Of a DNA stretch of 64,000 bases, positions 6,060 to 61,890 are shown piece by piece. Numbering within the stretch: position 1 is the stretch's first letter; the number at the start of each line of letters is the position of its first letter. The stretch is taken from positions 754,779 through 818,778 of the forward strand of contig OY781056.1 in NCBI GenBank assembly GCA_963676315.1. The letters are read 5' to 3'. The notes below the pieces were generated by a model. The model was not told the DNA's origin and made no database searches. It was given only the letters and a program-made list of their open reading frames with translations. This stretch comes from an uncultured Fusibacter sp. Its GTDB lineage: Bacteria > Bacillota > Clostridia > Peptostreptococcales > Acidaminobacteraceae. The position numbers were made by a program, and so were the translations under genes.

Positions 6060-6081
6060 TTCTGCCCCCTTGTCTCGATGA

Positions 6082-7248: not shown

Positions 7249-7294
7249 CATAATTTACACTATTTAGGATTTCACGTTTTAGGATTATTGATCA

Positions 7295-9385: not shown

Positions 9386-9395
9386 CTAAGTCCTC

Positions 9396-10916
9396 CTAAA
9401 ACGCGTCTAAGATAATGCCATTTAAAAAACTTATCACTGGATTTGGAAAAAGACCAAGTATGACGATAAGAATAGTCAAACCTATAATAGGCAAAAGCAT
9501 TGCCTTTTCAGGATCCAGACTAACCGTCGTCACCTGAAGTTCTGCATCATGTGGATTTACTTCTCTAGAATTGCTTTGTGTATTGGGTTCATCGCCTTTG
9601 TAGTTTTTGAAAAATGCAGTAACCACAATTGGAAGCAGATAACCCGCCGTTAAAAAAGCACTTAGCAATAAAATAAAGATATAACTGAAATTACTACCGT
9701 TCATTGCACCTAAGCCAAGGTACCATTTACTAACAAAGCCATTCGTCGGTGGGATACCCACAAGAGATATTGCAGCTACCGCAAAACAGAGCATCGAAAT
9801 TGGCATTTGCTTTCCTAAACCATCAATCTGATGAATATACTTTTTCCCAGTTTTCAAAGTAATCGCGCCAACTATGAAAAAAAGTGTGATTTTTATAAGG
9901 GCATGATTAATCATATGAAGCATTGCCCCACTTAGACCATTTGGATTCAGCATCAAGATGCCGAGAAGCATATAACCAAGTTGTGAAATCGTAGAATATG
10001 CCAGTCTCTTTTTCAAGTGATCCTGGTGAAGTGCTAAAAACGACCCCATAACTATGGTAAGCACAACAAATGGCATTAAGTATTTTGGTGCATCGAGAGC
10101 TCTAACTGCAGTTGCACCAAATATAAAATAAGTCATCCTGATTAAGGAAAAAACACCACTTTTGACGACAGCAACCGCATGAAGTAAAGCACTCACTGGT
10201 GTCGGTGCGACCATTGCATCAGGTAACCAAGAATGAAAAGGTACAAGTGCTGCTTTAACGCCAAATCCTAAAAACATAACAATATAACTCAGCAATAAAA
10301 TACTGTAATTGTTTGAGTCGATTTGCGTCAAAATACCTCTAGGTGAAAACGCCATTGTACCCGTTACTGAATATAGAAGCATCATGCCAAACAAGATAAG
10401 CGTGGCGCCACTAAACGAATAGATGATGTATTTCTTCCCGCTTGAAAGTGCTTGTTCTGTACCGTTGTACATCACAAGTGGTAGCGTGGATAAAGTTAAT
10501 AACTCATAATACACATATAGCGTAAATAAATTCCCTGAAAAGGCAATTCCCAAAACAATCCCCAGTGTCAATGTAAAGAATGAATAAAACTGTCTAAGCC
10601 TTTTTTTGTTTTTCATATAACCAAAAGCATAGAAAGCAGTCAACACCCATAAAAATGAAGCCATTAACGTAAACAATCTGCTCAATTGATCAATTCTGAT
10701 ATATAAATCTAAGAAATTATTTACTTTTAATAGATGTAACTGTGTAAGGGAATTTTGATAGATTGAACACCAAGCTAAAATCGCGTTCAATAGGACTGTG
10801 ACAGCTACGACTTTTGTAATTTGCGATTCCTTAATTAACCGATTATTAGATATTAAAAGTGCACTAAATATAGGAACAATTAAGGGCAATACCAATAGAA
10901 CTTTTTCCATTATCAT
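9396..10916 (-). CDS. mrpD: Proton-conducting membrane subunit (MrpD-like)
   Basis: PFHSWLPDAMVAPTPVSALLHA and LKKRLAYSTISQLGY. Confidence 0.85.
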   Translation of the reverse strand: MIMEKVLLVLPLIVPIFSALLISNNRLIKESQITKVVAVTVLLNAILAWCSIYQNSLTQLHLLKVNNFLDLYIRIDQLSRLFTLMASFLWVLTAFYAFGYMKNKKRLRQFYSFFTLTLGIVLGIAFSGNLFTLYVYYELLTLSTLPLVMYNGTEQALSSGKKYIIYSFSGATLILFGMMLLYSVTGTMAFSPRGILTQIDSNNYSILLLSYIVMFLGFGVKAALVPFHSWLPDAMVAPTPVSALLHAVAVVKSGVFSLIRMTYFIFGATAVRALDAPKYLMPFVVLTIVMGSFLALHQDHLKKRLAYSTISQLGYMLLGILMLNPNGLSGAMLHMINHALIKITLFFIVGAITLKTGKKYIHQIDGLGKQMPISMLCFAVAAISLVGIPPTNGFVSKWYLGLGAMNGSNFSYIFILLLSAFLTAGYLLPIVVTAFFKNYKGDEPNTQSNSREVNPHDAELQVTTVSLDPEKAMLLPIIGLTILIVILGLFPNPVISFLNGIILDAF

Positions 10917-10971
10917 CTCTCCATTTTCATTGGATTATTATGGCAATTGCATAGTAAATTATAAGATTTTC

Positions 10972-12465
10972 TTAGTTAAAATAGATACCGCGATCGATAA
11001 AGTCAATGATTGTTCCAGACATAAATCCAATTAAAATCATAATGATTGACAGGATAATCAGTGGTAAGAGCGTCTTGATTGGCTTACTCTTAGATTTGAA
11101 AACTTTTCCATCCAAATTGTCTTCACCGAAATACCCATTGATGATAATCGGAAAATAATAAGAAGCATTGAGCAAACTACTCGCAAGCAATATAGCTAGT
11201 AAATAAATCCGTCCGCTTTCAATCGCTGCCATCGAAAGATTCCACTTACTGATAAATCCTGGCAAAACAGGTATACCAATCATGGATAATCCACAGAGCG
11301 TAAAGATACCTAGTGTTACGGGCATTTCTTTACCAATCCCTTTGAAATCGTCTATCTTCTTTTTACCTGTTTGTTCAATAAAAGAACCTGCTGCTAAAAA
11401 TAAATTGGATTTAGTCACACCATGGGCAACCATATGATAGATTGCCATAGCAAGCCCTAAGCGATTACCAAGGCCGATACCAAAGAAAATATAACCCATT
11501 TGTGATACGCTCGAATAAGCAATCATGCGTTTCAGTTCTGTTTGAGATCGTGCTAAAAGCGAGCCTGCAATCATTCCAAGTGAACCAAAAACAAGCAACA
11601 GGTTTAGCACAACTGTGCCACTTAATATTTCGAATCCAAATACGAGGTAATAAATTTTGATTAAAAAAATGATTGGCGCTTTGATCACTAGTGCTGAAAG
11701 AATTGCACTAGAAGGCGAAGGTGCGGATGAATGCGCATCTGGTAACCAAATATGAATTGGAAACATAGCACCTTTGATGCCTAAACCTACAGTAAACAAG
11801 ATTAAACTTATCAAAATGGTGTTCTCATTCCCAACTACGTTGGTCGATAAAACGGTTTGGATGTATGCCATACTCAGATGCCCTGACATAGAATACACAA
11901 GTGCAATGCCCATCAGTACAAGACCAGAACCGAGTGTACTCAATATTAAGTATTTAAGTGTCGCTTTGACATTTTCTTTTTTATCTTTGATGATTATAAT
12001 ACCGCAAGCGGCCAATGTGCTCACTTCAATAAATACATAACCGTTGAATAAATCATAAGTGTAGACAATGCCTAGAAGTGATGCCAAAAGTAAAGATATC
12101 AATGTATAAAAAAAGCCTGTCTTACGACTGGGTATTTCCTTTTCCAGTCCATAATATGAATACCATGCAATCATCAACATCACAAAAGCAAATAAAAGGC
12201 CAATGACTGCTTCAATTTCTCCAATTCTAAAAGTAATGCCAAACGGCGCTTTGAAATGTCCAATTACCATGACGTATGCGCCATGAAGTGAGACAAAACT
12301 CAAATTAATGATATTTAAAATAACGACAAGGCTATTAATTGACATAAACAAAATATAACTCATTTTCTTATTCTTAATGAGTGGCATAATAAAGGCAGCC
12401 ACCATAAGCCCCATAATCGTTAAAAGTGGAATGAGTTTAATTAGACTATCATTCATTAATTTCAC
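10972..12465 (-). CDS. mrpD: Proton-conducting membrane subunit (MrpD-like)
   Basis: YDLFNGYVFIEV, FPIHIWLPDAHSSAPSP and LKRMIAYSSVSQMGY. Confidence 0.88.
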   Translation of the reverse strand: MKLMNDSLIKLIPLLTIMGLMVAAFIMPLIKNKKMSYILFMSINSLVVILNIINLSFVSLHGAYVMVIGHFKAPFGITFRIGEIEAVIGLLFAFVMLMIAWYSYYGLEKEIPSRKTGFFYTLISLLLASLLGIVYTYDLFNGYVFIEVSTLAACGIIIIKDKKENVKATLKYLILSTLGSGLVLMGIALVYSMSGHLSMAYIQTVLSTNVVGNENTILISLILFTVGLGIKGAMFPIHIWLPDAHSSAPSPSSAILSALVIKAPIIFLIKIYYLVFGFEILSGTVVLNLLLVFGSLGMIAGSLLARSQTELKRMIAYSSVSQMGYIFFGIGLGNRLGLAMAIYHMVAHGVTKSNLFLAAGSFIEQTGKKKIDDFKGIGKEMPVTLGIFTLCGLSMIGIPVLPGFISKWNLSMAAIESGRIYLLAILLASSLLNASYYFPIIINGYFGEDNLDGKVFKSKSKPIKTLLPLIILSIIMILIGFMSGTIIDFIDRGIYFN

Positions 12466-12868
12466 CTCTTATCGCTTTGATTTCATCTAGTTCAATGGTG
12501 CCATAGTAAGCGTGGTACTTAATCGTAAGGGCAAGCATACAAGCTGTTACACTTACAGCTACTACGATCCCTGTAAGCATTAAAGATGAGGGTATAGGAT
12601 TGATATAGCCTGTTGTACTCATTTTACCGCCAACTATTATAGGTGCCTCCTTACCATCAATGTTCCCTAACGTAATAAACAAAAGAAATATTGACGTGTC
12701 CATGATATTCATGCCTATGATTTTCTTTATCAAGTTGTTGTTGAGTAAAAGTATCATGAAACCGATACCGAATAAGATGATTGCTCCTACCTGAATATAA
12801 TTAGTCCCTAACATCGCCATGAGCTGTATCTCCTTCTTCAAATAGAGTTGCAATGACATAAAAAGCAA
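12449..12868 (-). CDS. mrpC: MrpC/MnhC subunit (true start probably near 12820)
   Basis: NLIKKIIGMNI...NPIPSSLMLTGIVVAVS. Confidence 0.9.
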   Translation of the reverse strand: MLFMSLQLYLKKEIQLMAMLGTNYIQVGAIILFGIGFMILLLNNNLIKKIIGMNIMDTSIFLLFITLGNIDGKEAPIIVGGKMSTTGYINPIPSSLMLTGIVVAVSVTACMLALTIKYHAYYGTIELDEIKAIRGEINE

Positions 12869-13274
12869 TTGCCACTACTGCTCCGATTAAGATATTCAGT
12901 GGTAATATAAAACCACCACTTATCAAAGTTGCAGGAACGCCAGTACCAATTAAAGTGTGGCCACCAAAAAATGCCCCAATAAAGACAGAACCTTTGATGA
13001 TACCATAGAGAATCAGTGCAATACTTACTATTTTCAACAAATTGCTTTTATTATATTTTGCATCAGTTTTTACAGGACCGTTTAAATAGCGATAGATAAT
13101 CATACTTGCACCTAAGATACTTCCACCTGCAAATCCACCACCTGGAGAAAGATGTCCATATAAAACCACATAGATGCCAAACACTTGAATAAAAGGTAAC
13201 AGCAATTTGATGATATTTGATATAATACTACTTTTCATCTCCTGATCCCCTTTCCTTGATAACAACCCTGACAA
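12801..13274 (-). CDS. mrpB: MrpB/MnhB subunit (true start probably near 13238)
   Basis: GHLSPGGGFAGG motif. Confidence 0.9.
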   Translation of the reverse strand: MSGLLSRKGDQEMKSSIISNIIKLLLPFIQVFGIYVVLYGHLSPGGGFAGGSILGASMIIYRYLNGPVKTDAKYNKSNLLKIVSIALILYGIIKGSVFIGAFFGGHTLIGTGVPATLISGGFILPLNILIGAVVAIAFYVIATLFEEGDTAHGDVRD

Positions 13275-46389: not shown

Positions 46390-47850
46390 TTAATTACCCT
46401 TATAAAGTGAAACCATTACATTTATTAACAAGAAAACAACTATTATAGGCATTAAGCTTAAAAACATGTTCAAAGATATAAGTAATGAAGCAATCAAAGT
46501 CTGTGCATGAGCTATAAATAAAAATATAACACAACTCACGGTTAACATACTTAAAATTACGTTTATGAAAATAGCGATTGTGAGGAAAATTATTGTTCCT
46601 ATGAATAAAAGCATGATATTACGTCTATCTGTACAGCCTACGATCCACAAACGATACATTTCGTTTTTTCGTTTTCTAAATACTTACTCACTAAAACCGC
46701 ATATGTTAAAAAAGATATAATTTGAGTCAATCGATTGATGATATTGGTTGATATATGAATGCCCTTCATTAAATATTGACTGGTTGTATACTTTCCAATT
46801 ATCGCTGTTCCACCAAAATAATGTGACTGTATGTAACTTCCCATATCCAGTAAATCACGATAATCTCTTATGTTGACAATCGCTGTATTCAATTGCTTGG
46901 CATCGTATATGATTTGTTCGATGTCAGGATGTTTCTCTAGTTGTTTGATGCTGACTATTACTTGCTCTTCTGTATATAGATGTTCCTGCAGCGTATCTTC
47001 AAACTGCCATCTTATTGTTCTATTCGTTTCAACATCTGCTTGTACTTCTTCCTCTGTAATATTTAAAATACATGCCGATATCATTTGCGTGGAAAAAAAG
47101 ATAAAAAGCCCGATTGAGAAAATCGTTATAAAATGTCGACTTGAGTTTTTACTCCCCCTCATGCTCATCCAAAGATAATACCCCATTTTTATCATTCCAC
47201 CACTTCGACAATGGCATCTAAAGGTTGGCTGGCGTTGATTCTCTTAAGGTTCATAAGACATGAAATTATCGGTAATAGTGTTAGCATGACAAAAGTACAA
47301 ATTACATCTCGACTTTCGAAAATCAATTTTAAATCTCTAAAAAAAGTGACCCATTATCAATTATGAATTTCTGTCCTATGCCCAAAAAATTAAACTGAAT
47401 ATCATCGTTGCGAGGTAAGTACAGATTCCCCATACAGCTATTTCCATCAATATTATAAAATTGATATTCTTATCTTCATATCCCAATGCCTTCAAAATCC
47501 CTATTTCATTTGTCTAAGTACTATGATTCGCTTTACAAGTGCCTTTTATAATAAAAATCCTAGAAAAAATAGTATCAAACTTATAAACGTTACCAGTTGC
47601 ATAAATGGTTCTATCATTCTTAGCCCAGAGCCTGGTCGTGAACGCATATGCATCATAGCGCTATAATTTTTTAATAAAACTGTATGTCAGCAATCGTTTC
47701 ATTTGCTTGTTTTTCATCATCCACCATAAGTGAATAGACGACATAAAGTTGTTCATTCATATCATTTGAGACAGTTCCACCATGTCGATGGCTTTTTGAT
47801 AATCAATTATACCTGTACAGGATAATTGATGTGCCTTTAAATTATCATAA
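46390..47850 (-). pseudogene. Degraded FtsX/MacB-like ABC permease remnants
   Basis: Broken hydrophobic frames; NEIGILKALGY permease motif near 47475-47510 with stops and frameshifts nearby. Confidence 0.55.
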
Positions 47851-48639
47851 ACAACGATCACAGTGAATGTATCTATGTACTTATTTTTCTTTACCAATTT
47901 GTTATCTATCTCTTTATACGAAAAATAGCTTACTTGTATTGTTTTACCAATTTTAATCCACCTATCCTCTACAAGTCATTCAACACTTGACTCTCATATG
48001 ATACAACCACTGACCCTTAAACAACTCATTGGGTATCCTTATTGCATGGTTGAATCTGCTGGTTAAGACCATATCCGGGTGTCTATCCATGCATCCAAAC
48101 ACAATCACACCGACCAGTCCCTTTTCGGTGTGATGACCATCTATAATATTGAATTAATCCACCTACTTGTTTAGTGAAAAGGACTTAAGATTTAAACTTC
48201 TTTAGATGGTATTGCTATCAGCATTTAAATCTCAAGCGATAAAAACTATTTAAAATCAAGGCTTTAAACTCAAAACGATTCTGCTCCAATGCATTGAGTT
48301 GCGCCTCAATCCAATGTCACTCAGCAGTCAAGCGGATCTTTAAGGCATCCACTACTGGTTCCTATCCCTTAAAGCTCATCTGACCTGAAACTCATAGGCA
48401 GTCAACGGATGGATATACAGTACCTATTAATGGTTATGAGACTCAAAAAGTACCCTGAAGGCTTCGTTAATACAACCTTATTTGTACCCAAAATTCTCCA
48501 TAACAATTCTACTAATCATATAAGTATTCCTCCCCACAATGCTTGCACTCGTATCATTATAGAACTTTAGTAGCGGTTATTTTGCAACAATCCTTCTTCG
48601 CTTATACTACTATTCGTCCTTAGAATTACTCAACTAGAC

Positions 48640-49917
48640 TTAAAAAATAAACGATAGATCCGAACGCTTTACTACAACTCCAAAAGGAGTAATAAACTCT
48701 TTTAAAAAGCTTTGATCTACAATTCCCTTAACCATCTCATTCGCTTTACTATAACCTTCCAATTCAACGTTACAGTTTTTTATAATCTCATCAACAGATT
48801 TATGATCTACTCTATAGCATGTCTTAGCTATTTTCATCCACTTGTTTAAGTAGTACCGCTCAACTTCTTCAGAATGACTGTTTGAAGCTATCTTACACTT
48901 CTCAATTGCAGCTTTTAATAACTCTGAAACATATTCCTCATCATATCTATGCAAATATCGATTTTTTTCTTTCATTACAGCATCTACTACACCACAAAAA
49001 ATCTGATCTTGAACTCCACTTGGTCCAATCGTGACTGATTTGATAGGGCAAATTTTCACCAAGTTATTATCGCTTTCCTTTCTTAGAAATTGAATGGACA
49101 TATATGGTTTTAGTATCCCATTGTCTTTACGAAAATATTCTACGACAGGTTCGTCAGGAGGTAAAAATAATACCCGAGTTTCGGACTCTCCCTTATAACC
49201 ATCTTCTTTGTAGAAAGAAGCTAGTGCCAGTAAATAAGCCTTTATTACATCTGTTTGATCATTCTTCATATTCGACTCTTGCTTCGTTGAAGAATCTCTG
49301 TCGTTAGATGGCCAAAAGGTTCTTTCGTAATCAGATTTATCATAAACATCCAATTCTCTTAGGGCTTCATTAAGGGAATCCTTAACATGATTAAGTGTTA
49401 AGGACTCTTTATCATACATTATAGAATACAAATTATCTGCTTTCAATTCTGTTGTAAAGTCAATTATTTGCTCTATTCCAAAGTACATACTCCCTTTATC
49501 CGTACCAGAATCTTGCTTTCCTATAAATAGATCTTTATCAAACTCTATACAAACCCCAGATTCTTTTGCATATGTTATCCATTGATGAAGTTCATCTGAT
49601 TTATTGGTAAAAGAAATAGAGAATGGCATTGTCAAGGGTATCTGCATCTCATCTTCAAGTTCATTTAATAAGTATGTTATAGTTGAATCAAATTCAAATA
49701 ATTTCTTCAATAAGGTTATTCCATACTTTATTTCTGTTGCATCATTCAAATAAAAAACATTTGTAGCTCTCATACAGCAGTTTTCCATAATTTTAATCAA
49801 CACATCCGTATTGGTATAGTGAAATAGAGCAATATCACCGCGATTTGATTGTGCATTTCTACTTCGTTCCAAAGCCTTTAAAGCAAGCGAGAATACATGA
49901 CTATTAGATTGTGACAT
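48640..49917 (-). CDS. DUF2971-like protein (gene 4 of the candidate defence operon)
   Basis: LFHYTN...RATNVFYLNDATEIKYG, QWITYAKESGVCIEFD, FYKEDGYKGESETR, IKSVTIGP. ATG 49917 overlaps the upstream stop by 14 nt. Confidence 0.8.
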   Translation of the reverse strand: MSQSNSHVFSLALKALERSRNAQSNRGDIALFHYTNTDVLIKIMENCCMRATNVFYLNDATEIKYGITLLKKLFEFDSTITYLLNELEDEMQIPLTMPFSISFTNKSDELHQWITYAKESGVCIEFDKDLFIGKQDSGTDKGSMYFGIEQIIDFTTELKADNLYSIMYDKESLTLNHVKDSLNEALRELDVYDKSDYERTFWPSNDRDSSTKQESNMKNDQTDVIKAYLLALASFYKEDGYKGESETRVLFLPPDEPVVEYFRKDNGILKPYMSIQFLRKESDNNLVKICPIKSVTIGPSGVQDQIFCGVVDAVMKEKNRYLHRYDEEYVSELLKAAIEKCKIASNSHSEEVERYYLNKWMKIAKTCYRVDHKSVDEIIKNCNVELEGYSKANEMVKGIVDQSFLKEFITPFGVVVKRSDLSFIF

Positions 49918-50611
49918 TTCCACCAACTCCATTTTTCTTAAAATAATATCCAATACTATTGAGTAACTCAATAGTATTGGTGTATCGTAAACTTAAAACT
50001 AAGTTTGCTCCTAAAAAACCTTTAATTGGTTTCTGGCCTTCATTATATAATAACTCATCACCTTCTAAAATGTTATCAATCCATTTAGCAGCATCAGAAA
50101 CAGATACAGATGAGTAAAGAACAATAATCATTGCTTTTTTGTTTTCATCAATCTTGTCTTCTAAACTACTTTTTAAATAATTTTTTAAAGCATAGGGTGC
50201 TTCAAAAGGCTCTGTAAAAAGCCATGCGAAATCACAGAATACTAAACAATTGGCAAAGTTTATTTCATCTACAACTTCTTCTGAAAATTTACTTTCTTCA
50301 CTTTTTTCTGTAACAAGATACCAGTCTATTTCTTCTACTTTTTTTTCTGGCTGTTCCCCACCTGGTTTTAGCAAATAACTAATTTTCACTGGTTCATATT
50401 TTCTTTGATTCGTCTGTGATCTTTTCTGTGTATACAAAAATATTTCAGCATCACATTTCACTTCATATTTTTTTTCATTTCTTTCTGATTTATTAACTGA
50501 AACAAGCGATTCATTAATTCTGGAAATGACATTAGCTAAAAAATGCTCTTCTGAAAGCTCCGCTTTAAAATCATCAAAGAAAAATACTCTATCAAAAATA
50601 ATCGTTTGCAT
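49904..50611 (-). CDS. Divergent response-regulator receiver-like protein without an output domain
   Basis: VFFFDD (beta1 acidic pair), LVFCDFAW (phospho-Asp strand), IIVLYSS (beta4 Ser); long insertion after beta1; GGAGGA RBS. Confidence 0.55.
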   Translation of the reverse strand: MQTIIFDRVFFFDDFKAELSEEHFLANVISRINESLVSVNKSERNEKKYEVKCDAEIFLYTQKRSQTNQRKYEPVKISYLLKPGGEQPEKKVEEIDWYLVTEKSEESKFSEEVVDEINFANCLVFCDFAWLFTEPFEAPYALKNYLKSSLEDKIDENKKAMIIVLYSSVSVSDAAKWIDNILEGDELLYNEGQKPIKGFLGANLVLSLRYTNTIELLNSIGYYFKKNGVGGNVTI

Positions 50612-50623
50612 AACTTTATCCTC

Positions 50624-53600
50624 CTATTCAAAAACCTTTAGTTTTACGACAATACACTTTTCGATATTGTCATAAAAAATATCCAGTGTCTTTGCCTTAA
50701 TAGCTTCGTTCTCTCGCTCCTCTAGGTCAATATCACACTTTCCTTGATCATTTTTAACTATATTAATCGTTTTTTCTAATGTCCAAAGAGTAATCCCGTT
50801 TCCATATTTATACAACGGTGGGATGCCCATTTCCGTTTTAATATCTTTAATTTTCTTCTCTATGTCACTGCCATCAAGCTTGTTCTTAACAACTAAATAA
50901 CTTCCTTCACGGTGACAACTGACAGTTAGTTCATCAATAGTATCAAAATAATCACCACCTAATTTCTGATGCTGAACCGCATTACTTGCTAGCAAAATAA
51001 TAAGTAGGAAAAAATATCTCACTGAACTAGGGCTTTGTGAAGCAAATATAAAATTTACATTCTCATCAAAGATATTTTTGCTCAATTCTATTTTTACAGA
51101 TCTTGTCTCATTACTATACTTATTAAAAACGTCTAACCTAATGAAATATATGTTGTCTTCAACAGATATCTTATATTGTTCGCTACACTCTGAAAGAAAA
51201 TCACTCATTGATGATGATTCATATCTAAGATCATAATCTTTCATATTTTTAAAATATTCTCGTTTAATGACATTTCGGTATAATTTTGATATGAATTGAT
51301 GAGCAAGTAACTGGACGTATCTATTAAACCAGTTAAATGAGTTATCAAACTCTTGAGGGTTTGATAATAGTTTAGCAAATGGTTGACCATCAAAATATAC
51401 CGTTTCATTATGGTGGCCAGCCTTATTTATTGATAATGCCTTAGCTATCTGAACAGATCGAAGCTCCTCTATCAATGAATCAATATTTTTATCATCGATT
51501 ACCTTTGCAAATTTTGACCTTAAAGTCAAAAGACACCGTATAAAAAAAATATGCTTTTTATCACTGAACGTAAGTGGGTCATTTTGATCAAAATTAATAC
51601 GATAATTTTCTACATCATTTTTTGAAGCGAATTTTACGAATATATACATGCTACTTTCATCACTTACATGTCCATTGATTTTGATTATAATGTTTTTTGT
51701 ATCATAGCAGTGACTACTAACATCAGAGTCATTTACCACTCTTCTCATGAATATGGTATCATTAAAGACTTCACTTTGCTCCAAGCTTAAAAGGCAGTCA
51801 ATCTCATTGAAATTCTTTTGGCTATAGAAATCAGCTTCATTACCACCTTGATTATGACTCTCTGATAAATCTTTGAATATGATATCATCCAACTCATAAT
51901 ACTTTACCCACTCATTGTTATGAACATTTGGATCCACAAGAAACAAGCTTATTTTGTCGATATCCTCAAATAAAAGCTTTATACAATGCTTTGTTTCTCT
52001 CCAGGTCAACCTGCTTTGATTGTCTAACAGCTTTGAGAGTTCATTGTAGTCTTTTGCATATTTGTAAAATTCACTTACAACAGTTTCGTTCTTACTATCA
52101 TTATAAAGACAGAACATTTTATAAAAATTCTCAAGATAATATGGTACTTGAGACTTGTCACTTTTACCTTCAAATCCATTCTTATCGATAGCATCTTTTA
52201 ACCCATCAGATAGTATCTGGCTATTTTCTATTAATAATCTCACTCTATTGCCTATTCCTATATTGTGCAATACTTCTAATGACTTTAAGTTAGCGGTAGG
52301 TTTCTGTTGTTCCTTTACGATACCTTTATTAAAAAACCGTTTTTCACTTCCATCGATTAAAACATATTCTAATAGCATTGTTTTTGTATCATCATTTGAC
52401 ATGGATGTTAATTTCTTTATTGCCCTTCGGTACACTAGTGAGTTAAACAATGTTATATATTCACTAGAAGTTTCCTTAATTCCATTAACTCTATTTGCGA
52501 GTTTAAATAAATTTGACATCACTTCAGATCTAATTAAATAATTGGATTGTAAGTCAGATAGGGCATTTACTAATGCCGCTAGCAATGATAATTGTCCATA
52601 ACTAATTCGTTCTAAATCAATACTCAATATTTCTTGAGCTTTTTCAATACAAAACTCAAATGCAGCTTGCCGTTTTCGTAAGTGATAAATAAAAAACGGT
52701 CTTGAAATTACCTTTACAAAAGCTACTCTAGCAACAAATGGATCATAAGGTTCAAAGTCCATCCACTTAAATTTTTTATTCTGAATCTGTTCATATAGAG
52801 CTTGGATTGCAAAGAGTATATCTTCCTTAATTTCCTTGTTTATTGGCGTACCATTTTTAAAATTATTGTCAAAGTCTATCCCATGATATTCTTTTTTTGA
52901 GAACTCTCCTCTTAATCGATTAGAGAGAATTTCTTCAATTATATGAGTAATAATCAGCATGCATTTTTTTTCATTATTTGCATTAATTTGATTTAAGCTA
53001 CGGAAGTCATCAATTTTGTGCCTTACTATAAAATCTTTGCAATATTTGCTCATTTCATTTGTTGAAACATATTCTCTTTCAATCTTATCATAAGACTTAG
53101 TTAATTGACATATCGTACAAGCATCCTTAAAATTTCTCATTGGAGAAATTGATAAATGAGCATATTCATAAAAGCTCTTAGTACTTCCTACTAATCCGGT
53201 CTTAGTCGCAGTAGAGTTTCTACCAATCAAAACGATCGCTGATGAAAATATTTCAATTTTACAAGAGTTTGAAATATCATTAGTATTATCAAAATTAACA
53301 AGTGACGATATTAGATTACGCATTCTTGTAAAATTTTTAGCAGAATAAATCGAATCATCAACGTAATGAAATCTTATCACTGACTTTTGTCCGCTATTTC
53401 GAATATTTTCAACCAATCTAAAAATATCTGAGTATTTAGCATGCATATTTCCTCGAAACTCTTTCATTACTTCAAAATATAAAATTCTAGCAGTGCTATT
53501 GAATACGAATCTATTGACACTTTGAATTAGTCCAGCATTACTAAAATGCCTTGGTGCCACAATAAAATCAAGCTTTAAAACATCATCAATTATTTTATCA

Positions 53601-54814
53601 TTATCTCCCCAATACCTTTTTACTCTTTGACGATATGTCATGTCGATACATTTTTTCACAGAACAAGTATGTACTTTACAACTAATGCAATGGTTTTCTG
53701 TAATCTTATATTCACTGGTGTCACAGCCTCGCAACCATTTTTCTATATATCCCATACTATTTTCTGAATGATAAAACCGATCTGACTGAAAATAGAATTG
53801 ATGATGATTTCCATCTTGTTCAACATGATGATAGACTACCATGTTTGCAAGTCTTATGATGCGCTCCAAATTTAATTTAGCACTTAGATTGATTCTCGCA
53901 TCATATGGTATTGTTGGACTAATAACTCCAAGCTGGAACATGGGTACAATTGATTCTCTATTTACTTCAAAAATAGGCTTTTCTTTTGCATACTCATTAT
54001 TATGGGGAAAACAATCAATACAAGTTGATGTGTCAGACCAACTTGTATTGACCCACGCTAAATAATAAACTACATCATTTATTAAAAATTCTAGTTTACG
54101 GTCTGTAAGTTTCAATGATTTTGTTGATAAATCTCTATGCCAAATTTCGTTATTTTCAACATCTGGAGCAATCATAACTAATGCTATATTTATATGAGAT
54201 GCATATAAATATTTATTATTATCACTATAAAACTTTGCCATCATTTTATCATGTGTAGTAAGAGTGGTATTAATTGGAACAACAAATGCTATAAAGGTTT
54301 TTTCAATCGCGTTGGAAAACTCCTCAATTATCTCAATATTTGAATATCGTATTGAATTAGAACTATCACTTTGCCTTTCAAAAACACCATAGACACATTT
54401 AATATCTCTCTCGACAAAGAACAAATCTAATAAATCCATAATCTCACAAAGAAGTATTTCACTAAATGCCTCATAGCCTACAACAATAATTTTCTCTACA
54501 TCTTCAGGCATACAAGAATATATCTTATCTGCAACTAAATACGCAAAATTCTTGTTGTAATATCCGTTTTGGAATAATATTTCTGCTTCAATAAAATCGG
54601 ATACATGCTTCTTTGATCCTAAATGTGTGTGACAATTGTGGATTTTACATCCTTGAGAGCTTTGTAATTGTAAATCCTCATTAAGTATGTTCTCAACATT
54701 CTCAATAAAGAGCTCTCTATGATCATTACAATTTTTCTCAGTTTCAAAATTAGTGTTTCTATAAGATTTTACTGCTAATTCAAATGGAAAAATGTCACTC
54801 ATAGTTTCCCCCAA
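50624..54814 (-). CDS. 1,396-aa protein: tandem PRTase-like domains + helical region + degenerate histidine-kinase/GHKL C-terminus
   Basis: FHYVDDSIYSAKNF (PRPP-binding-loop-like); degenerate first copy FVVPINTTLTT; CxxC pairs (CIDC, CTIC); C-terminal LLASNAVQH and GNGITLW. Likely ATG start at 54802. Confidence 0.6.
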   Translation of the reverse strand: MGETMSDIFPFELAVKSYRNTNFETEKNCNDHRELFIENVENILNEDLQLQSSQGCKIHNCHTHLGSKKHVSDFIEAEILFQNGYYNKNFAYLVADKIYSCMPEDVEKIIVVGYEAFSEILLCEIMDLLDLFFVERDIKCVYGVFERQSDSSNSIRYSNIEIIEEFSNAIEKTFIAFVVPINTTLTTHDKMMAKFYSDNNKYLYASHINIALVMIAPDVENNEIWHRDLSTKSLKLTDRKLEFLINDVVYYLAWVNTSWSDTSTCIDCFPHNNEYAKEKPIFEVNRESIVPMFQLGVISPTIPYDARINLSAKLNLERIIRLANMVVYHHVEQDGNHHQFYFQSDRFYHSENSMGYIEKWLRGCDTSEYKITENHCISCKVHTCSVKKCIDMTYRQRVKRYWGDNDKIIDDVLKLDFIVAPRHFSNAGLIQSVNRFVFNSTARILYFEVMKEFRGNMHAKYSDIFRLVENIRNSGQKSVIRFHYVDDSIYSAKNFTRMRNLISSLVNFDNTNDISNSCKIEIFSSAIVLIGRNSTATKTGLVGSTKSFYEYAHLSISPMRNFKDACTICQLTKSYDKIEREYVSTNEMSKYCKDFIVRHKIDDFRSLNQINANNEKKCMLIITHIIEEILSNRLRGEFSKKEYHGIDFDNNFKNGTPINKEIKEDILFAIQALYEQIQNKKFKWMDFEPYDPFVARVAFVKVISRPFFIYHLRKRQAAFEFCIEKAQEILSIDLERISYGQLSLLAALVNALSDLQSNYLIRSEVMSNLFKLANRVNGIKETSSEYITLFNSLVYRRAIKKLTSMSNDDTKTMLLEYVLIDGSEKRFFNKGIVKEQQKPTANLKSLEVLHNIGIGNRVRLLIENSQILSDGLKDAIDKNGFEGKSDKSQVPYYLENFYKMFCLYNDSKNETVVSEFYKYAKDYNELSKLLDNQSRLTWRETKHCIKLLFEDIDKISLFLVDPNVHNNEWVKYYELDDIIFKDLSESHNQGGNEADFYSQKNFNEIDCLLSLEQSEVFNDTIFMRRVVNDSDVSSHCYDTKNIIIKINGHVSDESSMYIFVKFASKNDVENYRINFDQNDPLTFSDKKHIFFIRCLLTLRSKFAKVIDDKNIDSLIEELRSVQIAKALSINKAGHHNETVYFDGQPFAKLLSNPQEFDNSFNWFNRYVQLLAHQFISKLYRNVIKREYFKNMKDYDLRYESSSMSDFLSECSEQYKISVEDNIYFIRLDVFNKYSNETRSVKIELSKNIFDENVNFIFASQSPSSVRYFFLLIILLASNAVQHQKLGGDYFDTIDELTVSCHREGSYLVVKNKLDGSDIEKKIKDIKTEMGIPPLYKYGNGITLWTLEKTINIVKNDQGKCDIDLEERENEAIKAKTLDIFYDNIEKCIVVKLKVFE

Positions 54815-54848: not shown

Positions 54849-56954
54849 CTATCTATCAAATATTCGAGTAATTGCTTCAATATGCTTAGGAGAATATCCC
54901 CTCATTGCAGTCATCTGTTTAATACTATGTTTTACCGAACTTAATGACTTTCCATGAATGACAATTTCTTCTCCAGCAGTTTTACCTCGAATATAGATTT
55001 CGACATTCTCCATCTTTGCATTTTCTCCATGTTTATTATAATAAAGAGAAATTATTCTAATTAGCTCTAAAATTTTGCTATCAGAATAACCCACTAAAGC
55101 AAATCTTAATTTAGATTTAGATGTACAATTTTTATGTCTTGAAAATATAAAAACAAGAATTCCCTTCATTAGAACCTCAGTATCTATGTTACTAGCTCTG
55201 ATTAAATAGTGTGAGTTTGAACTCAATCTTTCAAGCTGCATTTTTATACTCTTAACTTGGCTTTCTTTATCTCCATTAAGCATTTCTTTATCAAACACCA
55301 CATTAACAAAATTTGATGATGTTCTATTTTGAATTAGATACTTAAGATCATACGTAAGCATCGCATCATAACTGCTTTCATTCGAAATAACTCTTGTTGC
55401 CATAGGCAAAAGTAAAGAATATGAACTACCAGTCCGTTTTCCTTGAATTCTAAGTGGTGAGGATGAATTCTGAGTATTGCAATACTCGTCAGATCCTGAT
55501 GTTGCTGAAAAAACACCGCTTTTAGCAGTAAGAATTGAATCAAATATTTGCAGTCCATAATGATTTACAGCCTTATTTGCATCATCAAAAAATAATTCCC
55601 AAAACGATTGAGACTCTGCAGGAGCGAAAAAATCTTTTAACTTTAATGCTTCGAATATATTTTTTTGATGTCCCATTTTTTCATTTACATATTCAATATT
55701 CTTTTCTCTAAACTTATCAGCAACAGTTGTGGAAGACAAATCTGCAACTATTACCTCAAGAAAGTACTTGCATTTATTAAACTGATCAACTCCAATTTGA
55801 TGTATGTTATACTTTTGGTTTAGCAAGGGAATATCCCCATTTTCATGGAGATGAATACTTAACAAACCTTCTCCATCATCTTGATGATTAGATTGTCCAG
55901 CGTGCTTGACTACATTTTCAATCAACTGCAGCAAACCTTCAGAGATTATAGTTGCCTCTAAAACTTCATTTACCAAAAATGAACTGATTACTTCATTTGT
56001 TTTATCACCAACTCGATGATAATCAATTAAATCTTTATTGAAGTAACCTTCCTCTTCAGTGACCCTATTAGCGTCATAATACTCTCTTGAATAATCTATA
56101 GACTTAGTTTTCCCACTAATATGTTGAAATGCATAAGAGAAATCTCTCTCATATAAAGTCACTTTCTCTTGACCTGTCAAACTCTTAATATTTTTTTTCC
56201 AAGTATCTACTGCATCATGCCTATAGGAATAATCAAAAAGTGCAAAAATTACTAATGAAAGTAACGGTCTTCCTATAAAATGTTCTTTAAAATTTCCCTT
56301 TACTTTTTCAGAACCTATAAATATTTTCTCTCTTAAATCCGAAAGACCCTTCTCATTATCTATGGTCGTTAGTAATCGATAACACATGTTATGTAAAATA
56401 TCAGATAGTTCAGCATTTGGCTTTAACATTGTAGAGCTAAGAGATATCATACTCTCAAAAGTTTTAGTTGTGACTGGAGATTTTAATATATTATAACTTT
56501 CTTTATTTATTTTTATAATTGGAAGCATTCTCTTTGCGTTCACTTTATTTGCATTAATATATTCGATTGTGCCATCAGTATAGACTATGAATGTTCTGAC
56601 TGAAGAATTATCAAAATACTCTTTTATTAACGCTACCGTAGATTGTAGCCTATAATAATTATCATCTTGGATTACATTACCTTTTTTAATCGACGAATAC
56701 GGAAAATTGCAATGAATGTTAACAATCGAAAACTGATTACGAAGTCTAAGTGCTATTAAATAGGCTTCTAAAACTAATGAAAGATCGATAGTTCCTGAAA
56801 TTACTTCAAAGTAGATTTCGAAAAATAGGCTGAATCCCTTTGAATTTTTGCCTTCTAAAAATTCACAATGATACTGACTGTAGTATTTTGAATAGTCTTC
56901 ATATTTTTTTATAACAAAATTATACCTTTTTGCATTAGAATCATCCATCATCAC
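54849..56954 (-). CDS. 701-aa GHKL/HATPase-domain protein (anti-sigma-kinase-like), gene 1 of the operon
   Basis: LLQLIENVVKHA (N box), LEVIVADL (G1-like), NHYGLQIF (G2-like) and GSSYSLLLP (terminal strand). Confidence 0.65.
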   Translation of the reverse strand: MMMDDSNAKRYNFVIKKYEDYSKYYSQYHCEFLEGKNSKGFSLFFEIYFEVISGTIDLSLVLEAYLIALRLRNQFSIVNIHCNFPYSSIKKGNVIQDDNYYRLQSTVALIKEYFDNSSVRTFIVYTDGTIEYINANKVNAKRMLPIIKINKESYNILKSPVTTKTFESMISLSSTMLKPNAELSDILHNMCYRLLTTIDNEKGLSDLREKIFIGSEKVKGNFKEHFIGRPLLSLVIFALFDYSYRHDAVDTWKKNIKSLTGQEKVTLYERDFSYAFQHISGKTKSIDYSREYYDANRVTEEEGYFNKDLIDYHRVGDKTNEVISSFLVNEVLEATIISEGLLQLIENVVKHAGQSNHQDDGEGLLSIHLHENGDIPLLNQKYNIHQIGVDQFNKCKYFLEVIVADLSSTTVADKFREKNIEYVNEKMGHQKNIFEALKLKDFFAPAESQSFWELFFDDANKAVNHYGLQIFDSILTAKSGVFSATSGSDEYCNTQNSSSPLRIQGKRTGSSYSLLLPMATRVISNESSYDAMLTYDLKYLIQNRTSSNFVNVVFDKEMLNGDKESQVKSIKMQLERLSSNSHYLIRASNIDTEVLMKGILVFIFSRHKNCTSKSKLRFALVGYSDSKILELIRIISLYYNKHGENAKMENVEIYIRGKTAGEEIVIHGKSLSSVKHSIKQMTAMRGYSPKHIEAITRIFDR

Positions 56955-57639: not shown

Positions 57640-58623
57640 TGATATGACCCCAATAAGTTAGACTTTATAGCGAAGTAGTTATTCTACTCCGCTATATTTA
57701 TGCAGCTAAACGAAAAAGCCTGTATTCCACTGGACACATCCAGTTTAGCTTTTCTTTGATCCTCTTATCGTTACAATTCATGTTATATGATATTATATCT
57801 TCTTTCAATTCCTCATAATAATAATATACCTTGCTGTAGTACATCTCTTGTTTCATTATTCCAAAGAAATTTTCCATAACTGAGTTATCATAGCAATTTC
57901 CTTTTCTAGACATACTTTGATAAATCTTGTTCTTCTTCAGCTCCAAGTTATATACTTTCATTTGATAGCCCCAGCCCCAATCAGAATGAAATGTTCATCT
58001 ATACTTACAGTCGTTTGTAATTTTTATAGCATCCTATAATGCACTTATTATGTTAGATACTGAAGGTTTTGGCGATATCCCATAGCTGATTATTTCTCGA
58101 TTATATAAGTCCATAAACGGATCTAGATACATTTTTTTGATTACCATTCTTCCCGTATCATCAACTTCATAATATTTAAACTCAGTCGTGTCCGTCACAA
58201 TCTTCTGGTGGGGCATAGTACTCTCAAATCTCCTTCGGACTCTGTTTGGCGCAACTCTACCTACATTTCCTTTATAGGAGTTGTACTTACGACTTTTTCG
58301 AATGAATGATGTAACTTGAATCCCAAATTTTTGGGTGATAAGTTGAACCTTCTTTTTTTAACTACGATGGCACTTTTGCGAAGTTCTCCGTAAATCCTGC
58401 GGTATCCAAAATACTTATGCTTACAACGTATCCTTAGAATAATATTCTCCAGTTCTTGATTTGTATTTTCACAATCAAATCTCTTTTGCCAATACATATA
58501 TGTGGATTTTGGAAAGGCTGCAAATGCGAGAATATCTTTCACTCTAAATTCTCCTCGGAGGCTGTGGATGATTCTCACTGTTTTTTAAGAAGAGCTTCCT
58601 CTTCTAAACGCAGTCTCCTCAGT
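57640..58623 (-). mobile_element. IS3-family (IS150-group) remnant: right IR, fragmented orfB, orfA tail
   Basis: Terminal TGATATGACCCCAATAAGTTAGACTT at 57640; IVTDTTEF, LYNREIISY, QSMSRKGNCYDNSVMENFFG. A6C frameshift site at 58580-58586 before the orfB GTG; several stops and frameshifts. Confidence 0.9.
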
Positions 58624-58749: not shown

Positions 58750-61700
58750 TTAATTACTCAACCTGCCATTAATCTGATCAATAACCCCAATGATACGCTT
58801 TGCCACATCGAGTTTGCCATCAAATAAGTGCATGACATTACCTCGCTTATTAAATGGATGTTCATTGAGCACTCATTTATCTAGACTTCCGTTTTTGATA
58901 ATATAGTTGATTACTAGCTTTACAAACTCCATCTGTTTCAGATTTAGACTTTCTTCAGATAAGAATTCTGAAAACACTTCATTGGCAGCATGCGGGTCTA
59001 GTCCGATGATTTTGCTTACCAGTTTGAGTTGTGGCTCGTCACCAAACTCTTTTTCATAATCTTCTCTTGTACCGATTTCTTGCCATAATATCTTTTCAAA
59101 ATACTTAATATCATCTTCTGTTAAAGACTTATATTTCTAAATTTATAAATTACCAAATCATTTTGATGCTCCATCAAATACTTGTTCACCTTTTTTTGGT
59201 AATTTTGAATATTATTCACAGAATATTCACCTTGATTGTCTACAGTTTGAATGATTACATCAACAAAATTAGTATAATAGATTTCACTTGACTTACTATC
59301 AAGGAATTTAATTAAGTCTCTCAATGCCACGCGGACTTCTTCATAGTCAAAAATATCTGCTTCTTCCCAGTACTCATTGGTCTGAACTTTATAGATTAAG
59401 TCTTCCTGCTGTTTTGCCTTTTCAATAGTACCTTTAGAAGAGAGTTTTTCAGCTGTATTTATCACTCTATTTTTAGGATTTGAAGCTGGGACACGCTTAA
59501 TATCAGCATATTCAATAGTATACATTAAATAATCAAACCGCTTAGCTAATTCATCATCATCGATGGCTGGTACAAGTTGGGCAACGTGTTCTTCCAGTTC
59601 TCTGACATCAGCATCGGACAAACTTTCAAAAACACTTTCCTGATTGAATTTATGAAGAAACTAAAGCTTCATTCTGGCATTAAATTTTGTTTCGTCAACT
59701 ACCTTAACTTCTTTTAATATCCCTTCAATCAGTGTGTTTGTATGGTCAATATACTCATCAGTCTGATAATCAAAGACTTGAAGTTCTTTAATAATCCCTA
59801 TACGGATATTGAAAAGATTTTCTGTCAGTGACTTCATCATCTTGTCTTCTTTACCGTTTTTGTTGGTTTTAAAAAACTCAAAATTCCCACAGTAATCAAA
59901 AATTCTAAAACCTTCTTTATCAATGCTTACACCATACAAATCTTCACAAAGACGTGTACCACGACCAATTATCTGCCAAAACTTAGTCTTGGATCGCACT
60001 TTCTTGAAGAATACAAGATTAAGAATATCAGGAATATCAATCCCTGAATCCAGCATATCTACAGATACTGCTATCTGGGGAAGTTTATTTTTTGATTCAA
60101 AATCTTCTATGGTCGTTTCAACATAATTGATTCCTGTATATATAGGCTTTGCAAAATTACCATAGTATTCTGGATATAAGCTATTAAAGCGTTTTACGAT
60201 GAAATCTGCATGTTTTTTATTCTTAGCAAAGATTATGGTTTTGCCTAGTTTATCGTCACCTTCTACTTTTAAACCCTTCTCCATCAGCTCCTGTAGTACT
60301 ATATCTATTATATTGTCATTATACAGAAATGAATTCAAAGCTTCGCCACTGATATCTTTCACATCATCGTCAAATGTTTCTTCAAACAATTCCTTTTCTA
60401 AGTCTGTCAAATCATCATAATGAATCCCTTTTTCTGGGAATTTCAACTTAGTTTCTATTGTGTGATAAGGCACTAAATATCCATCTTCAATGGCTTCTCC
60501 CAGCTCATAAGCATAAGTTGGTACATTGTTTTCAAGCTCAAAAATGTAATAGGTGTTTTTATCAAGATCATTTTTAGGTGTCGCTGTAAGCCCTAATAAA
60601 ATGGCATCAAAATAACTAAAAATATCCTGATACTTTTTATAGATACTTCGGTGACTCTCATCAATGATAATGAGGTCAAAATGACCTCTAGTAAATATCT
60701 TTTCACTGCGTTTGTTCGTAATATCATCAATAGCATTCATAATAGTTGGATAGGTTGAAAATACTATTCGACTCTCTGGATTATCTTTCCCGTCTAATAG
60801 ATTGCATAGTGACAATTCAGGCAAAAGCGCTTTAAAGTTTTTCTTAGCCTGTTTAACAAGAGCTGTCTGATCTGCAAGGAACAGGATATTTTTAACCCAT
60901 CCTTTGTTTATGAGCATATCAACAGTTGATATGGCAGTTCGTGTTTTGCCTGAACCTGTTGCCATTACAAGCAAAACTTTACGATTCCCTTTTTCTAAAG
61001 TATCACAAACCGATGTAATAGCCATTTTTTGATAATAACGATTTGTTATCTCCTCATTTATAATCGAATTCCTTAAAGAAAATTTATACGGCCTCTTGAA
61101 GTGAAGCCATTCTAAATCGTCTTTTGTAAAAATCCCAGATACAAGCCTCTCAGGGTACGATTTATCATCCCATAAATAATACTCAAATCCATTGGTATAG
61201 AATATAATCGGTCTAACATTATACTGTTTTTCTAAAACAATCTGCATAACGTTGTGCTTGTATTTGACCTACTCTTGGGTTCACACTGGTTTTCTTTGCT
61301 TCAATGATTGCTAGAGGCTTGCCATTATCACTAAACAGGACATAATCTACATAGCCAATTCCCGCCTGATTAGGCATACCTTCCACTTCAACTTCTTCAA
61401 GACAATCATTGCCAATCACCCATCCATTTAATTCTATTTCAAGATCAATATACATCTTGCGTGTCTTGAATTCAGAAATCTCATCTACCTTGAAATCGCG
61501 ATTTTTCTTATTATCAACACGCTTGGTTGCATTAACATGTCTTAGTTGTTCATTTTCTTTAATGATTTCTTCAAGTTTACGGTCTTTTGAACCCAGACGC
61601 TCATATAAGTCTTTTAGTTCATCTCTGGTTTTTCTTTCTTTTTCATTATCCCCAAGTAAGCTTTCATCAAAAGTTATCTCTTCATATTCATCAGAATAGC

Positions 61701-61890
61701 AATAATCAATCCAAGAAATAAACTCAAACAGATTACGAAGGACCAATACAGCCTGATCTCTTGAAATTGGCGTTGCTGAATGTACTGCTTTATTACCAAG
61801 CTTTTGAATGTAGGTAATCATGGGAAAAAGTTTGTTATCAATAATGCCATTAAAACGATAATCGTGTATTAAAGAAGCAAGGTTATCCTA
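58750..61890 (-). pseudogene. hsdR: Type I restriction enzyme R subunit (EcoAI/EcoEI-like), shattered
   Basis: YVDYVL...AIIEAKK nuclease motif, MATGSGKT, DESHRS, TATP, QIIGRGTR. At least five lesions (three in-frame stops, two frameshifts); 5' end missing. Confidence 0.92.

Follow-up and report, generated by a model that had tools for sequence, protein, structure and literature searches.

What is the function of a bacterial protein that joins two phosphoribosyltransferase (PRTase)-like blocks to a tail resembling a histidine kinase? This question is raised by a long gene, here called gene B, in a 64,000-nucleotide stretch of DNA from an uncultured Fusibacter sp. (GenBank assembly GCA_963676315.1, contig OY781056.1, positions 754,779 to 818,778), referred to below as the window. 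A preliminary description of the window, made from the sequence alone, had proposed that one PRTase copy is degenerate and serves as a nucleotide sensor or regulator, that the other is catalytic, and that the tail signals to a receiver encoded downstream. We find this interpretation to be partly supported: it was largely right about the folds, and it needs correction as to strand and start codon, the weak first PRTase copy, and the degraded tail. Our overall picture, to which we give an even chance, is that gene B encodes the signal-integrating subunit of a mobile, Detocs-like defense cassette with phosphorelay-style wiring. The architecture of the cassette, as assigned below, is very probable. 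All positions are those of the window unless another locus is named, and every feature of the cassette lies on the minus strand.

The open reading frame (ORF) of gene B is real. It comprises 1,396 codons between positions 50624 and 54814; a chance origin is rejected because of such a length in DNA of ~30% GC content and because homologues exist. The TTG at 54814 with which the ORF begins is an artefact of the ORF caller and lies within the ribosome-binding region. The true start is the ATG at 54802, 6 nucleotides past a GGGGGA ribosome-binding site (start region, AAAAAGTTGGGGGAAACTATG). Hence, gene B extends from 50624 to 54802 (stop codon, 50624 to 50626), and its product has 1,392 amino acids (aa) rather than the 1,396 first reported; the same form is on record (P0002). 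Every motif string that had been quoted is present in this protein, in the order HLGSKKH (residue 60), PINTT (176), CIDC (261), YHHVEQ (324), YVDD (480), CTIC (562), NKAGHH (1126), SNAVQH (1273), and GNGITLW (1334).

No credible Pfam, NCBIfam, or PADLOC match was found for the gene B protein or for its 13 homologues, and phmmer and profile searches against PDB sequences were empty. These 13 relatives, 29 to 35% identical, were identified in a word-indexed search of 5.8 billion proteins, and none has a Pfam domain or a name. A match of a single family member to Nrap_D4 (E = 0.0017) was below the cut-off and was treated as chance. We predicted the structure of the protein with AlphaFold2 (AF2) as two separate halves, each with an alignment of homologues. 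The N-terminal half (residues 1 to 720) had a predicted local distance difference test (pLDDT) score of 69; the C-terminal half (residues 681 to 1392) had a pLDDT of 72 and a predicted template modeling (TM) score (pTM) of 0.72. Profiles of each part of gene B, built from 48 to 55 sequences, were compared by hhalign with PRTase, receiver, and HATPase_c profiles built from this genome's own genes (11 PRTases and 62 receiver domains). Cross-controls mostly gave P values of >0.1, the lowest being that of gene C, which lies directly downstream, against the PRTase profile (P = 0.036). Conservation was scored in a wide set of 142 independent gene B representatives, pairwise at most 50% identical, to which the fractions of 142 below refer, and in a close set of 12 close homologues.

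The N-terminal half of the gene B protein consists of two α/β modules, at approximately residues 100 to 255 and 405 to 550, with the same order of strands and helices in the AF2 model. Foldseek matched this half to dozens of type I PRTases in the PDB with a probability of 1.00 and TM(target) scores of 0.40 to 0.47, examples being HGPRT structures from Trypanosoma cruzi and human, OPRT (4fym), and HGPRT entry 1tc1; the output does not say which of the two modules aligned. Tandem AAA+ proteins (NSF, Cdc48, and Yta7) topped the same list with TM scores of 0.10 to 0.16, root mean square deviations above 25 Å, and low probability, and we rejected them as generic matches to a pair of α/β domains. 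For module 2 (53153 to 53590), hhalign gave P values of 3e-4 to 9e-4 against the PRTase profiles, with the first β strand (β1) also in register, versus P > 0.29 for the receiver and HATPase_c controls. The alignment places FHYVDDtIxSGxTfxR of module 2 on VIlVDDxixTGgT of the PRTases. This is the site of a motif of the type that binds phosphoribosyl pyrophosphate (PRPP), FHYVDDSIYSAKNFTR (residues 478 to 493; 53324 to 53371). A hydrophobic strand followed by an acidic pair and x-x-[ST]-G-x-T defines such a motif, and module 2 has it (FHYVDDSIYSAKNF), whereas the corresponding VPINTTLTT of module 1 has no acidic pair.

The motif of module 2 is strongly conserved. The VDD that the preliminary description saw retained in the second block is borne out, in that D482 is invariant (142/142) and D483 is Asp or Glu in 130/142 representatives; G488 (138/142) and R493 (135/142) are nearly as constant. 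Position 488 is Ala in the protein from the window, as it is in this genome's own Hpt. K456 and R528 are kept in all 142 representatives, and the region of the flexible loop is rich in conserved basic residues. No match to the PRTase family PF00156 was found in gene B or its 13 homologues at E values of up to 1, and a genome-wide scan with PF00156 returned 11 other genes. An affiliation with the Pfam PRTase-CE families, which had been raised as a possibility, was not borne out; none of 14 family members had a match to these hidden Markov models at E values of up to 1. By profile alignment and by motif, module 2 has the fold of a type I PRTase, and its PRPP-type motif is intact.

Module 1 (54038 to 54505) is PRTase-like in its predicted topology, with secondary structure elements in the order β-α-β-(insert)-β-α-β-β as assigned by DSSP. 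Its acidic pair is replaced by P176-I177 and a phosphate-loop-like TTLTTHxK is kept; P176, T183 (142/142), and K186 are conserved. The best local hhalign alignment, itself not significant, puts VPINTTLTTHxK in register with the PRPP loop, and P values against the PRTase profile ranged from 0.12 to 0.32. The two modules did not match one another significantly (P = 0.07 to 0.5), whether the alignments were shallow or deep, and also when settings were relaxed. They do share the order of their elements, namely, a His/Cys pair, the β1 motif, the phosphate loop, and a CxxC. The spacing of these elements is also similar, with 67 and 65 residues from the β1 motif to the phosphate loop and 85 and 80 residues from the loop to the CxxC. 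The "two similar blocks" of the preliminary description are thus alike in element order, spacing, and predicted β-α order, but not significantly so in their profiles. Similarly, its reading of the first copy as a degenerate PRTase agrees with the missing acidic pair and the topology, but finds no significant signal in the sequence. We regard module 1 as PRTase-like only, on the evidence of predicted topology and motif register, and we infer that the two modules may derive from an ancient tandem duplication.

A His/Cys motif comes before each module, and a CxxC comes after it. The N-terminal motif, GCxIxxCHxHxGSKKHxxxFxEAExLFxN (residues 51 to 79; 54566 to 54652), has C52 in 134/142 and H58 and H66 in 142/142 representatives, and is the proposed metal partner of CxxC-1 (C261-I-D-C264; 54011 to 54022). 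A second His motif, HHHIxRNxNH (53804 to 53827), includes H326 (142/142) and H333 (137/142) and is the proposed partner of CxxC-2 (C562-T-I-C565; 53108 to 53119). The observation that a CxxC (CIDC or CTIC) follows each block extends to the whole family, with CxxC-1 present in 142/142 and CxxC-2 in 141/142 representatives. It is precisely in these bracketing His/Cys and CxxC segments that AF2 pLDDT values are <50, as expected if the structure there is metal dependent. These patterns suggest that two metal sites bracket the modules. A Cys/His-rich insertion, CDTSEYKITENHCISCKVHTCSVKKC, lies between the second His motif and module 2 (residues ~359 to 400; 53603 to 53728), has a low pLDDT, and is found in this genome's protein alone; close homologues have no insert or unrelated inserts. 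It may be an extra zinc ribbon.

The C-terminal half begins with a helical region (residues ~600 to 945; 51968 to 53005), delimited from the AF2 model and from conservation (ISRPFF, LYxENN, and PYYL), that is not assigned to a family. It is followed by a GAF/PAS-like α/β domain (residues ~948 to 1058, residues 268 to 378 of the C-half model; 51629 to 51961), for which the Foldseek matches to GAF domains were weak (3lfv and 1ykd). A hairpin of long helices comes next (residues ~1079 to 1180, model residues 399 to 500; 51263 to 51568). It carries the motif KAxxH, whose histidine, H1131 (codon at 51410 to 51412), is kept in 49/49 sequences of one set and in 112 of the 121 aligned in the wide set. 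We propose that H1131 may be a phospho-acceptor or catalytic histidine.

The last domain of the protein (residues ~1192 to 1389, model residues 512 to 709; 50636 to 51229) is, as judged by fold and profile, a degenerate histidine-kinase-type ATP-binding domain of the Bergerat fold. Its elements are an N-box (SNAVQH), Asn1307 at the position of the G1 Asp, what is left of a G2 box (GITLW), and, at the close, a VKL strand (VKLP is kept). Foldseek matched the C-terminal half to WalK (9a5d; E = 2e-5), DivL (4q20), an EnvZ chimera (4kp4), HK853, and HprS. Further matches were to the catalytic and ATP-binding (CA) domains of ThkA (3a0x), VanS (8dvq), and AgrC (4bxi), and to PDK2; scores other than that of WalK were modest (E of about 0.04; TM(target), 0.3 to 0.4). 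These alignments pair the tail with the cores of histidine kinases, that is, the dimerization and histidine phosphotransfer (DHp) domain together with the CA domain. Consistent with this, hhalign aligned the terminal domain with HATPase_c (P = 7e-6) over 38 columns covering the N-box and the next strand, with LLASNAVQH on LixNAiky. The alignment ends before the G1 box because G1 and G2 are degraded, as judged from column statistics. Of the G2 box, only G-I-[TS]-L is left, the spacer has ~25 residues, and the lid is short. No Pfam HATPase_c match to the tail was above threshold.

The folds proposed in the preliminary description were thus recovered, with a PRTase core in module 2 and a histidine-kinase-type tail. 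Of the tail motifs it listed, the H-box His is nearly invariant and the N-box aligns with that of HATPase_c, but the Gly of GNGITLW is not conserved, only I-T/S-L being so. Likewise, the resemblance to histidine kinases holds for the fold but not for the G1 box, which is missing. Since there is no G1 box, only a remnant of G2, and an N-box Ser in about one-fifth of the relatives, the tail is probably not an autonomous kinase. We read it as a histidine-kinase-like module whose His is probably essential and whose ATP site is degraded.

An ATP site of the same type is encoded directly upstream. Gene A (54849 to 56954; 701 aa), which the preliminary description had not linked to gene B, encodes a kinase-type (GHKL/HATPase_c) ATPase. 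It has no Pfam match, and the regions on the N- and C-terminal sides of its ATPase domain are unassigned. A 43-sequence profile of gene A aligned with this genome's HATPase_c profile over 107 columns (hhalign P = 2.4e-7; probability, 93%), which locates a HATPase_c-like domain at residues 334 to 521 (55392 to 55955). The match spans the full domain, from an N-box (ENxxxH) through the G1 Asp405 and a G2 box (HYGL) to the closing GTxYxxLLP, and E346, N347, H351, D405, G467, L468, G480, G509, and P517 are conserved. No conserved His lies ahead of this domain. Genes A and B are frequently fused, forming one ORF of 1,950 to 2,170 aa in ~30 of 42 genome loci. The same holds for 86/142 (~60%) of the representatives (the best new hits of the family search), counted as those at least 1,800 aa long.

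The 235-aa protein encoded downstream, to which the tail had been suggested to signal, is receiver-like, as proposed. Gene C (49904 to 50611) has no Pfam match in the window copy, and two of its relatives have sub-threshold matches, one to Response_reg (E = 0.018) and one to iREC (E = 0.007). Against the 62-sequence receiver profile, hhalign gave a P value of 4.5e-5, with Asp127 aligned on the phospho-acceptor Asp. D127 is conserved in 35/36 and D14 in 31/35 sequences, and many homologues start with KILLIEDD. We regard gene C as a divergent receiver-like gene.

The fourth gene, which the preliminary description did not mention, is a candidate output gene. Gene D (48640 to 49971) has 443 codons counted from a TTG, and its likely start is the ATG at 49932. 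It matches the Pfam family DUF2971 (PF11185) with 23.8 bits against a cut-off of 22, and a match was also obtained at two further loci (L005 and L003). An alignment of 32 sequences shows H51-Y52, Y134, and E262-x-E264-x-R266 to be conserved. DUF2971 is a predicted ADP-ribosyltransferase (ART) family close to DarT (PMC12522546), and the same domain is found in Aristaios, a validated single-gene antiphage system of lactococci (PMC11381338). We therefore predict that gene D encodes a DarT-like ADP-ribosyltransferase effector. A perfect 14-bp inverted repeat with a 3-nucleotide loop, CCAATACTATTGAG-TTA-CTCAATAGTATTGG, followed by the T-rich ATATTATTTT, lies at 49950 to 49980, in the 3' end of gene C and ~18 nucleotides before the likely ATG of gene D. 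This repeat could serve as an attenuator within the operon, or its hairpin could mask the ribosome-binding site of gene D.

Genes A, B, C, and D are co-directional and closely spaced or overlapping, with gene B second, and the order A-B-C-D is kept in 6/6 metagenome contigs examined. A scan of species-representative genomes identified 42 loci, all from Bacillota and mostly from metagenome-assembled genomes (MAGs) of the gut or rumen; those carrier genomes that have names likewise all belong to Bacillota, most being isolates or MAGs from the gut and rumen. In nearly all of these loci, A-B is followed by an ORF the size of a receiver and by a homologue of gene D. In the most distant branch (L041 to L048), the receiver-like and DUF2971 genes are missing and a calcineurin-like Metallophos protein or domain is found instead, either as the next gene or fused at the C terminus. 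This protein has ~750 to 810 aa; examples are L041:10942-13317 and L046:5844-13550. In a search of 1.84 billion representative sequences, a profile of the two modules together found 1,138 clusters at 50% identity, 925 of them at E values of ≤1e-30. Some copies have decayed. At L003, an IS110 transposase (11983 to 13035) separates B from C, and gene A is broken into parts of 532 and 171 aa (5928 to 8008); at L005, a frameshifted gene B is split into parts of 1,096 and 221 aa (8001 to 12080).

The distribution and surroundings of the cassette suggest a rare, horizontally mobile element. The module is absent from 60/60 relatives searched (9 species from this genus, 27 from the family, and 24 from the order). 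The GC content of the cassette is ~30%, versus ~35% around it. Directly upstream are fragments of an IS3-family transposase (rve and HTH_21; 57698 to 58578), and a type I restriction R gene further upstream (59661 to 61821) is split into two overlapping ORFs of 200 and 528 aa, so that the region looks like a decaying mobile and defense neighborhood. The flanks vary between loci. A tyrosine integrase was found at L001 and RhuM at L080, and L005 has, by faint Pfam matches only, a resolvase and a HipA-like gene. Since the flanks differ, the cassette is self-contained. Three integrases, AAA_21/AAA_15 ATPases, and FRG domains were counted in a census of neighbors (the 142 nearest ORFs at 38 loci). 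Strong PADLOC matches in the same census were to LmuB (3e-137), HEC-02A (4.5e-121), NsnB (4.9e-93), NsnC, and AriA/GajA-like ATPases. The swap of effectors, the DUF2971 protein of Aristaios, the absence of the module from all 60 relatives, the GC content, the IS3 and restriction neighbors, and the heterogeneous flanks together argue for a role in defense, which we consider reasonably probable.

Further observations concern the edges of the cassette and other parts of the sequences examined. Directly downstream of the cassette, ~1.4 kb (47200 to 48640) has no ORF of at least 60 aa on either strand; it may consist of coding DNA that has decayed, or it may be a long non-coding segment at the island's edge. 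A MalT-like LuxR regulator (832 aa; AAA, TPR_MalT, and GerE) and a 1,227-aa leucine-rich-repeat surface protein are encoded between 38257 and 44705, and these genes appear unrelated to the cassette. At L081:318-3867, upstream of the cassette, a 681-aa protein with no Pfam match and a size near that of gene A is encoded together with an Anti-Pycsar Apyc1-type metallo-β-lactamase gene and a 208-aa gene. This group may be a second conflict module.

How might such a cassette work? In the mechanism that we propose, the PRTase-like pockets of gene B would bind a phosphoribosyl compound (PRPP, a nucleotide, or a derivative of ADP-ribose) whose level or identity changes on infection. Binding of this ligand would switch on the gene A ATPase, which would then phosphorylate His1131 of B. 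Gene B could have lost G1 and G2 and yet have kept His1131, and gene A could do with no His of its own, because the ATP site of A would phosphorylate B. A phosphoryl group, or a conformational signal, would move from B to Asp127 of C. C would in turn release or activate D, and ADP-ribosylation of DNA, RNA, or protein would arrest the growth of the infected cell (abortive infection). In the distant branch, the same sensor would drive the calcineurin-like phosphoesterase instead. In its most specific form, this would amount to a new split-kinase immune family with gene B as its signature protein, built from a giant sensor that holds a metal-bracketed pair of PRTase-fold pockets (one catalytically dead and one intact), a stand-alone receiver, and interchangeable killers that are either DarT-like ADP-ribosyltransferases or calcineurin-like phosphoesterases. 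We put this form forward only tentatively.

Several of our results weigh against this mechanism. For the input, it is hhalign on which the assignment of the PRTase fold to module 2 in particular rests, and module 1 is without significant similarity, by profile comparison, to PRTases or to module 2. For the relay, hhalign found no match to a DHp profile in the helices around H1131, and AF2 pLDDT values there are <50. In the 12 close homologues, residue Asn1274 of the N-box does not vary, and in the wide family 83/111 sequences have Asn and 23/111 have Ser at this position; the DxGxG of a G1 box is absent from the tail, with Asn1307 in 100/111. The conserved Lys typical of receivers was not found in the gene C alignment, and genes C and D are separate genes in all loci, with no fusion. 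Genuine His-to-Asp phosphotransfer in the cassette is, in our estimation, somewhat doubtful. As for mobility and defense, a tblastn search of plasmid and phage collections with the module gave no match, and the enrichment of defense genes in the flanks is an impression from the census. No curated model recognizes gene A, B, or C.

The complete PRPP motif of module 2, together with the basic residues R450, K456, R493, and R528, invariant and under strong selection, could also mean that this module is an enzyme. It might make a phosphoribosyl second messenger that activates the ART, or it might drain PRPP or purine pools, with the kinase-like parts as regulators. There are parallels for both, in that PRTases of Ter systems have been proposed as synthesizers of signals (PMC7824862) and ShosT is a defense toxin with a PRTase domain that disrupts purine metabolism (PMC11961720). 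We nevertheless consider an enzyme unlikely. A separate, swappable effector (DUF2971 or Metallophos) is always present, which fits a sensor better, and in the window protein the conserved Gly488 is replaced by Ala, albeit a change shared with this genome's Hpt. The invariant His/Cys and CxxC motifs around each module bring to mind a different function. ComF-family proteins combine a zinc finger with a PRTase domain and bind single-stranded DNA, and the modules of gene B might likewise be ComFC-like binders of nucleic acid with which the protein senses phage DNA or RNA directly. The only weak PDB-sequence match of the CxxC-2 segment, to a zinc-ribbon ribosomal protein, points the same way. However, no ComF structure is among the top 50 Foldseek matches, which are to HGPRT and OPRT, and the ligands here, an N-terminal His/Cys pair and a CxxC on the C-terminal side, are not arranged as in a four-Cys finger at the N terminus; the binding of metal is itself a prediction. 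A ComFC-like function is, in our view, decidedly unlikely.

The remaining explanations depart from a phosphorelay at gene C or reject defense altogether. With D14 and D127, no receiver-type Lys, and sub-threshold matches to Response_reg and iREC, gene C resembles cRec domains, which are receiver-like domains with two Asp residues that occur in contexts of ADP-ribose processing (PMC9503650). Gene C might then be an enzyme or adaptor acting on an ADP-ribose-derived product of D that is read by the pockets of B, making the cassette an NAD/ADP-ribose circuit; the combination of an ART with phosphoribosyl-binding folds would suit such a circuit. We think this very unlikely, given that D127 falls on the phospho-acceptor Asp of ordinary receivers in the hhalign alignment. 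Moreover, cRec has been reported never to occur with a histidine kinase (PMC9503650), whereas the gene directly upstream of C ends in a kinase-like tail whose His is nearly invariant. The cassette might, finally, be a toxin-antitoxin-like addiction module or a housekeeping operon for nucleotide-responsive signaling. Many of the flanking genes are ordinary metabolic or surface-polysaccharide genes, and PRTase-fold regulators that sense PRPP or nucleotides in metabolism, such as PyrR and PurR, do exist. This is the least probable of the explanations we considered. No DNA-binding output is encoded, and in its place is a toxin-type ART or a phosphoesterase; all 60 relatives are without the module, and integrases and known defense genes are nearby. 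In addition, copies have decayed by insertion of an IS element or by frameshift, which is typical of accessory conflict genes.

We compared the cassette with known systems that share one or another of its parts. Our literature searches on PRTase-CE, DUF2971, and the combination of PRTase, kinase, and receiver did not find the architecture of gene B described. Like type I PRTases (PF00156; for example, HGPRT and OPRT), module 2 has the fold and the PRPP motif in register, but it is below every Pfam threshold and is embedded in a protein of 1,400 to 2,100 aa. A further difference is that the modules of gene B are paired and bracketed by His/Cys and CxxC motifs, with one copy having no acidic pair. 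The effectors of type III-A retrons belong to PRTase-CE Pfam families (PMC13712802, PMC12746101). These effectors and ShosT (PMC11961720) are like gene B in placing a PRTase-like domain in an antiphage context. In contrast to retrons III-A, the gene B cassette has neither a reverse transcriptase nor a DprA-like partner and no PRTase-CE match, and unlike in these effectors and ShosT, its PRTase-like part is coupled to kinase-, receiver-, and ART-like components. The resemblance to Aristaios and DarT lies in gene D, not gene B, as gene D carries DUF2971 and the HY...Y...ExE motif set. It differs from Aristaios in its length of ~440 aa with a C-terminal extension and in always following a giant sensor and a receiver-like gene.

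The closest parallel is Detocs, an antiphage system in which DtcA is a histidine kinase, DtcB a buffer receiver, and DtcC an effector that joins a receiver to a PNP domain, with swappable effectors (10.1101/2023.01.24.525353). The cassette shares with Detocs the logic of a kinase-type ATPase, a His, and a receiver in a compact accessory operon. Both also have a receiver protein that stands alone, and in both the enzymatic effector, which kills the cell (for D, by our prediction), differs from branch to branch. The differences are numerous. The sensor of the cassette is a tandem PRTase-like module and that of Detocs consists of TPRs. The ATP-binding domain and the His of the cassette are on separate polypeptides, or far apart when fused, and the kinase-like tail beside the His is degenerate. 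The receiver of the cassette is not fused to its effector, whereas that of DtcC is, and the effector is a DUF2971/ART or Metallophos protein rather than a PNP nucleosidase. The DtcA, DtcB, and DtcC models gave no PADLOC match to A, B, C, D, or the fused forms. Because of the missing match, the other sensor, the split kinase, the unfused receiver, and the other effectors, we conclude that the cassette is not a member of Detocs.

The gene B family is sizeable and unannotated in the databases searched, and it looks like a new defense system of the two-component style. If this is confirmed, thousands of genes now labeled hypothetical would gain a context, and the sensing of nucleotides or PRPP would be tied to growth arrest based on ADP-ribosylation. 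The module pair would, if the proposed wiring is true, be the first PRTase fold to serve as the input domain of a phosphorelay. With ATPase, sensor and His, receiver, and effector on separate polypeptides, the four-gene form is convenient for biochemical reconstitution. Confirmation would also establish a second, structurally unrelated family of defensive two-component systems beside Detocs.

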